Virus record (IMG/VR): IMGVR_UViG_3300028833_000055
Location: 174,446-238,445 of that record
DNA length: 64,000 bases
Strand: one strand, 5' to 3'
Source of the DNA: a virus
Lineage: Duplodnaviria; Heunggongvirae; Uroviricota; Caudoviricetes
The notes beneath the pieces were generated by a model, which searched no databases, was not told the origin of the DNA, and worked only from the letters and a program-made list of their open reading frames with translations. Every line of letters begins with the position of its first letter. Position 1 is the first letter of the stretch. A program made the translations under genes and the position numbers. This document shows positions 15,068 through 15,709 of the stretch, piece after piece.

Positions 15068-15709
15068 TTAATTCATTTCACTTTGACAATACCTTGTTAG
15101 CTTTTCAAGTGACTGGGTGTATATCTGTTTCACCCTCTGTATGGGCAGTTCAAGTTCATCCGCCATCACTTGAAAGTTATTGTATTTCATATCCCCATAC
15201 TCATCCATATGGAGTTTCATCATTATAGTCTTTTTTCCGTATTCATCAAGAGTTTCAAGACCTTTTCTTAAAATGTAGTCCCTTTCGTCATTGAAGGCCA
15301 AATTATTGCACTCCCCGAGCATATCATAATCGAGTTCGTTGATACGAAGATATGAGAGTTCGACAGTCTCCTCCTTCGCCTCTTGTCCTTTCTTGAAACC
15401 TTTCTGGTGATTGACTGGTATGTGTACGAGATTTGTGTTTCGGTTGATGTAGTTCATAATCTCACCTCTTACGGAAGCCCCGCACGCCTTGACAAAATTG
15501 TCGTTTCTTGTTTTATCGTATTTCATTTCAACCTTTTTCATCGCCTCCGTACCGACCGCTATGAGTTCATCCTCATCTATTCCGGTTTTCTTTGATTCGT
15601 TCTTTGCGATTTTTACAATGTAGAGAAGATTCTGAGTGGTAAGGTCTCCATCGTTTTCCTGTGCTCTCTTTACGGCCTTACCTATTTCATTATAATATCT
15701 TGAATCCAT
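15068..15709 (-). CDS. sigma-70 family RNA polymerase sigma factor
   Basis: Region 2 is clear (GDLTTQNLLYIVKIAKN...DELIAVGTEAMKKVE.KYD...F..A...VRGEIMNYINRNTNLVHIPVNH, cf. sigma70 GD..A...L...LV..IA..Y...DLIQEG..GL.KAV.KFD...RIPVH); a region-4-like HTH sits at the C-terminus. Confidence 0.7.
   Translation of the reverse strand: MDSRYYNEIGKAVKRAQENDGDLTTQNLLYIVKIAKNESKKTGIDEDELIAVGTEAMKKVEMKYDKTRNDNFVKACGASVRGEIMNYINRNTNLVHIPVNHQKGFKKGQEAKEETVELSYLRINELDYDMLGECNNLAFNDERDYILRKGLETLDEYGKKTIMMKLHMDEYGDMKYNNFQVMADELELPIQRVKQIYTQSLEKLTRYCQSEMN

Follow-up and report, generated by a model that had tools for sequence, protein, structure and literature searches.

A 64-kb stretch of an uncultivated phage genome encodes a divergent sigma factor beneath a promoter-like motif of the type used by the housekeeping sigma factor (sigmaA) of Bacteroidota, and it also carries a second, more numerous class of promoter-like box that departs from this host type. 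The stretch, hereafter the window, covers 64,000 nucleotides (positions 174,446 to 238,445 of IMG/VR record IMGVR_UViG_3300028833_000055) and is part of a ~354-kb jumbo phage from gut or rumen. The sigma gene (15068..15709, minus strand, ATG start) specifies a 213-amino-acid (aa) protein that was recognized from its open reading frame (ORF), a PHROG match, a family profile and a fold model. The boxes were sorted into three classes: a 16-nucleotide motif (the 16-mer; class C) upstream of the sigma gene and four others, boxes preceding replication and nucleotide-metabolism genes (class B), and boxes built on the core CATAAATA (class A). Overall, a two-step reading is probable, in which host sigmaA acts at the 16-mer and the phage sigma then turns to class A.

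The 16-mer AAAATAGTATCTTTRT, which reads ACAAAGATACTATTTT on the plus strand and AAAATAGTATCTTTGT on the coding strand, occurs five times in the window when up to two mismatches are allowed, against 0.18 copies expected from shuffled sequences, and none of 100 shuffles reached five. Its plus-strand positions are 15757 (with one mismatch, TTTAT), 17480, 34758, 42415 and 52460. A sequence-only reading of this DNA had already reported five copies, and the same sites were recovered; the leading T that it treated as optional is present at 42414 and 52459, but the base at 34757 is a C. All five copies are intergenic or touch only a stop codon, in a window whose intergenic share is only 3.3%, and 5/5 lie upstream of co-oriented starts. 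The spacing from motif end to ATG is 47, 125, 17, 14 and 22 nt for the copies in order, in agreement with the 14-48 nt (126 nt for the single-stranded DNA-binding protein, SSB) given earlier. The class is sharply bounded, because relaxing the search to three mismatches adds just one site, an intragenic one at 26398. Similarity among the copies ends at ~17 nt, so they are not parts of a longer repeat. The shorter pattern TAnnTTTG, taken alone, was not enriched in the window (60 found, 62.8 expected).

All five copies face minus-strand genes. Copy 1 (15757..15772, AAAATAGTATCTTTAT) lies 47 nt 5' of the sigma ATG and overlaps the stop codon of a phosphoesterase gene; its box is kept in relatives. 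Copy 2 (17480..17495) lies 125 nt 5' of the gp32-like SSB gene, farther out than a class B box, and is specific to this phage, being absent from the same spot in relatives. Copy 3 (34758..34773) is located 17 nt 5' of the gene for a 132-aa predicted membrane protein (34342-34740), and copy 4 (42415..42430) 14 nt 5' of a 137-aa gene heading a run of small genes that ends in DNA primase. Copy 5 (52460..52475) follows a terminator hairpin and precedes by 22 nt the ClpP-like protease gene (51763-52437), whose start is the ATG at 52437 and not 52512; a recorded protein (P0121) is identical to its 224-aa product. A partial sixth copy of the motif core, ATAGTATCTTTG, is found antisense inside dnaK (23734-23745, plus strand). 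It is probably there by chance, and it could drive an antisense transcript.

The core of the 16-mer (TATCTTTG in four copies, TATCTTTA in one) matches the -7 element TAHHTTTG, which transcript mapping in Flavobacterium johnsoniae placed at positions -12 to -5, with the start site 4-5 nt downstream of it (PMC6847099). In that species the -33 element is faint, and AT-rich elements near -18 and -28 are stronger (PMC6847099). With the core aligned in this way, the AAAATA of the 16-mer sits at -19 to -14, the AT-rich -18 position. The likeness to a Bacteroidota sigmaA promoter extends over the core TATCTTTG, the AT-rich -18 stretch and the short distance 5' of genes without Shine-Dalgarno (SD) sequences. 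The window copies differ from such a promoter in having no -33 TTTG and in carrying an invariant AAAATAG just upstream of the core, with 16 fixed positions in all.

Sigma upstream regions were then compared among 16 distinct relatives with 45-92% sigma identity. The -7 box TAHHTTT(G/A) was kept 5' of the sigma gene in 13/16 and its flanks diverge, in keeping with the Bacteroidota -7 consensus that the sequence-only reading had noticed in the motif. The A-tract form is retained in close relatives, and a T-tract takes its place in distant ones, in which TTTTTTTTGTATCTTTG or TATATTTG stands at the sigma gene. In 6/16 relatives a complete TTTG-N20-TAHHTTTG promoter lies at the orthologous site, within 150 nt of the sigma start codon; the background for this pattern is 0.03 per kb, or ~0.07 cases expected in total.

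The exact 16-mer was found in at least 111 IMG/VR stretches, which form 71 sequence clusters. Among the matches listed, 62/111 placed it within 150 nt 5' of a co-oriented ORF, mostly at 11-42 nt, and 72/88 loci with at least five genes were SD-poor. The control, a reversed 16-mer of the same composition, gave 84 stretches with five upstream placements and 33/71 SD-poor loci. In one cluster the homologues of the largest protein occur only in phages of Flavobacterium, Cellulophaga, Tenacibaculum and Maribacter and in one unassigned Caudoviricetes record, and another carries a Cellulophaga-phage-like terminase segment. Use at the same position in many unrelated SD-poor phages is most simply explained by a site for a common host enzyme, and on this evidence the 16-mer appears to be a generic host-type promoter and not a family-specific site. 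The A-tract-extended, -33-less form of the host promoter, common to many Bacteroidota-type phages, is new. One cluster that is 94% identical to cultured Bacteroides uniformis phages supplied no promoter example, the motif lying inside the DNA polymerase I gene, and L109 had matches in phages to tRNA genes only.

The sequence-only reading had also proposed a Bacteroidota host, which now appears well supported but not proven. SD-like tetramers precede 7/59 window genes, at or below the 14% background, and relatives are alike in this respect. Where a host is named, the listed records of homologues of the 1291-aa protein (25/25) belong to phages of Prevotella, Tenacibaculum, Chryseobacterium, Flavobacterium and Sphingomonas (phage PAU). 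The window also encodes a T4 gp32-type SSB, DnaK, NrdD/NrdG, guanylate kinase, primase, a UvsW-like helicase, a gp2-like end protector, PhoH and ClpP. DnaK is closest to proteins of huge metagenomic phages and Prevotella Lak phages. The gene order DnaK, gp32, phosphoesterase, sigma is kept in relatives on contigs of 337-388 kb, and some relatives come from cattle rumen samples; L461 and L462, for example, are from rumen samples of Stewart 2019.

Class A supplies the second promoter class, distinct from the host-type one, that had been presumed to exist. Its core CATAAATA has 14 exact copies in the window against 4.4 expected, and 14/14 lie between genes or at a gene border, oriented like the gene that follows. 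The core is invariant in 47 sites drawn from the window and eight relatives. Around it the consensus consists of a T-run, CATAAATA, two free bases and TTATA, giving the extended form CATAAATAnnTTATA; no upstream partner element was found in the 47 sites, where only the T-run lies upstream. The late promoter of phage T4, TATAAATA, is read by gp55 together with gp33 and the sliding clamp. Class A resembles it in that CATAAATA is 7/8 identical and is a single element without a -35 partner, but the box begins with an invariant C and is followed by a second conserved element, nnTTATA. This late-like box with an invariant C and a second conserved half is new; searching the literature for CATAAATA brought up nothing but unrelated primers and sequences. 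In IMG/VR scans, class B and class A patterns lay upstream of genes in 34/124 and 37/121 matches, an intermediate enrichment that leaves the breadth of their use unsettled, because such AT-rich patterns give many chance matches.

On the minus strand, class A boxes precede a 645-aa gene (11775..11782), a 401-aa gene (13058..13065), a 237-aa membrane protein (15030..15037), a 721-aa gene (22550..22557), a 410-aa gene (27648..27655), the SPFH/flotillin-like gene (32774..32781, the variant CATAAATC), the 1291-aa gene (56433..56440), phoH (57213..57220) and a 241-aa gene (60601..60608). On the plus strand they precede a 781-aa gene (34786..34793, divergent from class C copy 3), a 764-aa ATPase gene (37172..37179), a 284-aa gene (43385..43392), a 678-aa gene (57232..57239) and a 334-aa gene (60582..60589). 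A further plus-strand box (47539..47546) heads the block 47579-51748, which includes the gp2-like DNA end protector, repeat proteins and a RuvC-like protein, and extends over the ATG, the first three bases, of a divergent minus-strand gene of 588 aa (45775-47541). The box of the membrane-protein gene beside sigma comes straight after the sigma terminator and is only 4 nt from the ATG, a spacing found in three lineages. The phoH and 678-aa boxes, and likewise the 334-aa and 241-aa boxes, are back to back: in both pairs (57213-57239 and 60582-60608) the boxes lie on opposite strands 11 nt apart between divergent genes, an arrangement kept in relatives L460-L462. Class A genes are mostly large and unannotated, with the end-protector block, PhoH, the ATPase and the flotillin-like gene also among them. 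A "late/structural" label for them rests on few matches, because most of the large genes stayed without annotation when about 50 window proteins were scanned against PHROG and Pfam.

Class B, like class A, was found by reading all intergenic regions of the window and has the form TTTTTTGTTATATTT(A/G); these TTTTTTGTTATATTTA boxes stand 5' of replication and nucleotide-metabolism genes. All those in the window are on the minus strand. One (TTTGTTATATTTA, 17424..17436) is the proximal promoter-like site of the gp32-like SSB gene, one (24511..24523) precedes dnaK (Hsp70), and one (28133..28145) ends 4 nt 5' of the nrdG ATG. Variants occur 5' of a small ORF that is followed by guanylate kinase (TTTGTTATGTTTA, 31166..31178), 4 nt 5' of an internal ATG in the small ORF 43085-43387 (TTTGTTATCTTTA, 43359..43371), and 5' of the 588-aa gene, with the UvsW-like helicase after it (TTTGTTATTTTTT, 47564..47576). 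A terminator hairpin comes directly before the box at the DnaK, NrdG and guanylate kinase sites. The 4-nt spacing at two sites suggests leaderless or near-leaderless transcripts. Mechanical ORF calls mislead at 42791-43387 and 51763-52512; coding in the small minus-strand ORF 43085-43387 probably starts near 43354, and this ORF, whose class B box is present in relatives too, is more likely to be real than the overlapping plus-strand ORF with a TTG start.

Every relative examined has a class B box at the SSB and DnaK positions orthologous to those of the window. The class includes TATATTT(A/G), a version of the host box whose -5 base is A or, in some cases, G; the form ending in G, seen in some relatives, is a full match to TAHHTTTG. 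Its geometry is also exactly TG-N-TATATT, that of an extended -10 element. In three relatives a B-type box (TTGTTATTTTT) takes the place that the 16-mer holds at the ClpP gene of the window. Because B and C exchange places in this way at orthologous ClpP and sigma promoters, the two were treated as one broad host-type family. The five 16-mer copies would then be a lineage-specific subtype of a broader family that includes the TTGTTATATTTA sites.

The 213-aa protein matched PHROG 351 (phage sigma factors) with E 9e-11. It comprises a sigma2 domain (residues ~1-93), a low-confidence linker (94-140) and a putative sigma4 domain (~141-213). The "clear regions 2 and 4" claimed in the sequence-only reading are not evident from the single window sequence, for which Pfam returned only region 4 (Sigma70_r4, E 0.029, below the curated cut-off) and the PDB only 8b3z (E 0.007), but they emerge at the family level, region 4 more weakly. 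More than 200 homologues were found, all of ~210-230 aa, on contigs of up to 388 kb. The metagenomic contigs bearing the family reach about 410 kb, and the longest (233-412 kb) look like near-complete jumbo-phage genomes. A profile built from an alignment of 20 homologues matched region 2 in SigA, RpoD and RpoH structures (best E 2.8e-7) and gave a collinear, weak alignment to SigA region 4. Pfam Sigma70_r2 was matched in 14/20 family members (best E 7e-9) and Sigma70_r4, at E<0.01, in 2/20.

The AlphaFold model (mean pLDDT 72) consists of two helical domains joined by the linker. Its C-terminal domain has four helices (pLDDT 80-94) and falls inside the Foldseek alignments to sigma factors. 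Among the PDB matches listed by Foldseek, 50/50 were sigma factors, with sigma32 best at E 2.1e-6; TM-scores are low (~0.3) because the two domains are joined by a disordered linker. Judged by profile and fold model, the protein is a divergent member of the sigma-70 family. Searches against 50,697 deposited phage genomes found no match to sigma by tblastn (E <= 1e-3) and nothing by megablast with 5 kb around the gene, so that the family appears to be without a counterpart among them. T4 gp55 showed no specific relationship to the sigma profile (E 0.064 over 41 columns). A GC-rich hairpin and T-run (15040..15064, minus strand), kept in close relatives, lie directly 3' of the sigma stop codon, and with this terminator of its own the sigma gene is a one-gene unit.

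In sigma70, Y430, W433, W434, Q437 and T440 read and melt the -10 element, and region 3.0 reads an extended -10. In the alignment to SigA, the equivalents of all five residues are replaced in the phage sigma, and an IPV(N/H) stretch, aligned with the beginning of region 3.0, is retained.

The observations comprise the motifs with their positions, orientation and conservation, the fold of the sigma protein, and the fact that SD-poor phages make generic use of the 16-mer; from them we infer the following course of events. The phage would use the RNA polymerase core of its host. The 16-mer would serve as a compact promoter for the sigmaA holoenzyme of the Bacteroides type, with TATCTTTG as the -7 element and the A-tract as the AT-rich element near -18, which in this lineage appears to stand in for the weak -33 TTTG. 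Initiation 4-5 nt after the G would give leaders of 10-44 nt (~122 nt for SSB). Class C would thus fire without any phage protein and supply sigma, SSB, the small membrane protein, the block of small genes ending in primase, and the ClpP-like protease, and class B (TTTTTTGTTATATTTA) would also be read by the sigmaA holoenzyme, serving replication and nucleotide metabolism. The phage sigma would then redirect the core enzyme to CATAAATAnnTTATA, the most numerous class. It is proposed for this role because it is the only sigma factor seen, lies under a host-type promoter and has a remodeled promoter-reading surface, and because class A alone departs from the host consensus; the CATAAATA class is accordingly its best candidate target by inference.

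Several points weigh against the two-step reading. Copy 1, the one at the sigma gene itself, has A in place of the nearly invariant G at -5, and a -33 TTTG is absent from 5/5 window copies and only weakly visible among the IMG/VR copies. The replacement of the -10-reading residues makes the specificity of the phage sigma unreadable from its sequence. Related jumbo phages usually carry a gp55-like minimal sigma as well (PMC7824862, PMC5259590), and such a protein is the expected reader of a T4-late-like box. Start sites, timing and the assignment of holoenzymes to boxes are all predicted. As regards the host, three relatives, L121 (JBGVNW010000068.1), L122 (CAMEUD010000006.1) and L008 (JAMPGK010000032.1), one of them 360 kb, are in genome bins labeled Bacilli, Clostridia and Lachnospiraceae and not Bacteroidota, and a scan of reference genomes turned up only two binned contigs; these Firmicutes-type labels were taken as binning artefacts because the contigs are without SD sites, and the contigs are probably mis-binned phage genomes in public metagenome-assembled genomes.

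The gp55 question leads to a three-tier cascade, in which sigmaA acts at the 16-mer, the 213-aa sigma at TTGTTATATTTA, and a gp55-like protein encoded outside the window at CATAAATA. Such a layout was proposed for jumbo phage CBB, in which early promoters of host type include one at a sigma gene, replication genes and a gp55-like gene share a middle motif, and ATAAATA is the late motif (PMC5259590). Sigma factors are encoded by every group 2 jumbo phage, and phages of this group carry a fuller and a gp55-like minimal sigma together with gp33 (PMC7824862). A cascade of this kind would also make use of the extended -10 geometry of class B, the retained IPV(N/H) stretch and the identity of CATAAATA at 7/8 positions to a promoter read by gp55. 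Against it, the exchange of B and C boxes at the orthologous ClpP and sigma promoters points to one holoenzyme for both, and in some relatives class B ends in G and agrees fully with TAHHTTTG. No gp55-like ORF was found in the window or the related loci searched, out of a genome of ~354 kb, and the 213-aa sigma is not a gp55 orthologue. We regard the three-tier cascade as rather unlikely.

Two further explanations would deny that the 16-mer is a host promoter. Small self-activating regulons are typical of two-domain extracytoplasmic-function (ECF) sigma factors, and the phage sigma, with its ECF-like sigma2-linker-sigma4 layout, might read the 16-mer as its own promoter; the motif precedes the sigma gene in all close relatives, and its 16 conserved positions exceed the 8-nt host box. 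However, the 16-mer precedes genes in dozens of unrelated contigs, and a sigma homologue in just one of the 111 listed stretches, which are partial and a few kb each. Distant relatives with the same sigma residues drop the A-tract and keep the textbook TTTG-N20-TAHHTTTG, sigma4 has no conserved -35-like partner to bind, and a first, host-driven round of expression would still be needed, all of which makes self-activation very unlikely. The exact conservation over an extended 16 nt would also suit a binding site for a phage regulator or an RNA-level signal. Its distance of 14-47 nt from start codons is one at which leader elements are found too, and the sigma and SSB leaders bear other repeats (AGTTTA). 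Yet the 16-mer is neither a palindrome nor a hairpin former, copy 1 shares bases with the stop codon of the preceding gene, and copy 5 follows a terminator, so that a new start is needed there. The match to the -7 box and the bipartite promoter in relatives would moreover be left as coincidences, and the generic use of the site by unrelated phages also conflicts with this reading. A regulatory role of this sort seems to us highly improbable, and the two-step reading, with host sigmaA at the 16-mer and the phage sigma at class A, is preferred.

Cascades of sigma factors that set out from host-type early promoters belong to textbook phage biology, and the window reveals no new principle: its parts, a Bacteroidota housekeeping promoter, a phage sigma and a T4-late-like box, are all of known kinds. 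As in T4 and CBB, the host-type promoters include that of the sigma gene, replication genes have a motif of their own, and many other genes follow an (N)ATAAATA box without a -35 partner; the host type is here that of Bacteroidota and not Proteobacteria, and the loci searched showed no gene for gp55, gp33 or a clamp. The 213-aa sigma and T4 gp55 are both sigma-related and both co-occur with an ATAAATA-type box, but only the former has a (predicted) sigma4 domain. Known phage members of the sigma-70 family include gp28 and gp34 of SPO1 and gp36 of phiEco32. The window protein resembles these, and the fuller sigma factors of group 2 phages (PMC7824862), in being small, in combining sigma2 with a putative sigma4, and in its expected core binding and switch of promoter class; it differs in being very divergent, with the key -10-reading residues replaced. 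A bolder proposal, which we hold only tentatively and consider more doubtful than not, is that a two-domain sigma without the usual -10-reading residues, working on a Bacteroidota core without gp55, reads a promoter that consists of one T4-late-like element and spans the start site (CATAAATAnnTTATA), and that AAAATAGTATCTTTGT represents a -33-independent "extended -7" type common to unrelated Bacteroidota phages.

The transcription programs of Bacteroidota phages, especially the uncultivated jumbo phages of gut and rumen, are almost unmapped. The layout described here, with a host-type family at sigma and replication genes and an abundant second box conserved throughout the phage family, is clean and testable. 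It allows genes to be sorted into regulatory classes from sequence and provides independent evidence of the host phylum where binning misleads. The boxes are also short candidate promoter parts for Bacteroides genetics; the extended -7, if borne out, would be a ready-made, strong promoter part of 16 bp for Bacteroides engineering.

Further features were seen in the leaders of the sigma and SSB genes. AGTTTA-type repeats occur in the sigma leader (15710-15756, minus strand); the window has two, and distant relatives have as many as five, spaced ~10 nt apart (L007 and L121, upstream of position 10001). AGTTT was not enriched upstream of genes generally (2.3 vs 1.7 per kb) and is specific to the sigma and SSB leaders, and the repeats look like a control element common to these two messages. 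The leader of the gp32-like SSB gene (17355-17425, minus strand) also has a small conserved stem-loop with a GNRA-like tetraloop and compensatory changes in 3/4 pairs, at the same position in L001, L003, L004, L006, L007, L008, L121 and L122. (T)AGTTTA repeats come after the stem-loop, and the combination recalls the translational operator of T4 gene 32.

Two other scans were set aside. For the 1291-aa protein the closest relative on deposit is LR756500, where motif counts at 24% GC amounted to noise, and a scan for E. coli-type -35/-10 promoters gave scattered, mostly intragenic sites (76 vs 56 +/- 7) and is irrelevant to this host. Elsewhere, the window holds genes for a full-length Hsp70 (DnaK, 22614-24488), an SPFH/flotillin-like protein (31223-32764) and PhoH (56441-57157), and relatives L460-L462 have a GroES-like (Cpn10) gene near 18000-19650. 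In L460 the UvsW-like helicase gene (13873-16949) is split by an intein, with Hint and Intein_splicing matches, and in L461 a GIY-YIG homing endonuclease (10679-11668) is inserted right after the ClpP gene. A 1263-aa gene has in-frame tandem DNA repeats of 96 and 48 nt (2040-2530), two adjacent proteins (48480-49610) have 75-nt repeats and match repeat-protein PHROGs, and neighboring genes in L003 and L006 match DUF285. The repeat proteins are probably surface or host-recognition proteins.

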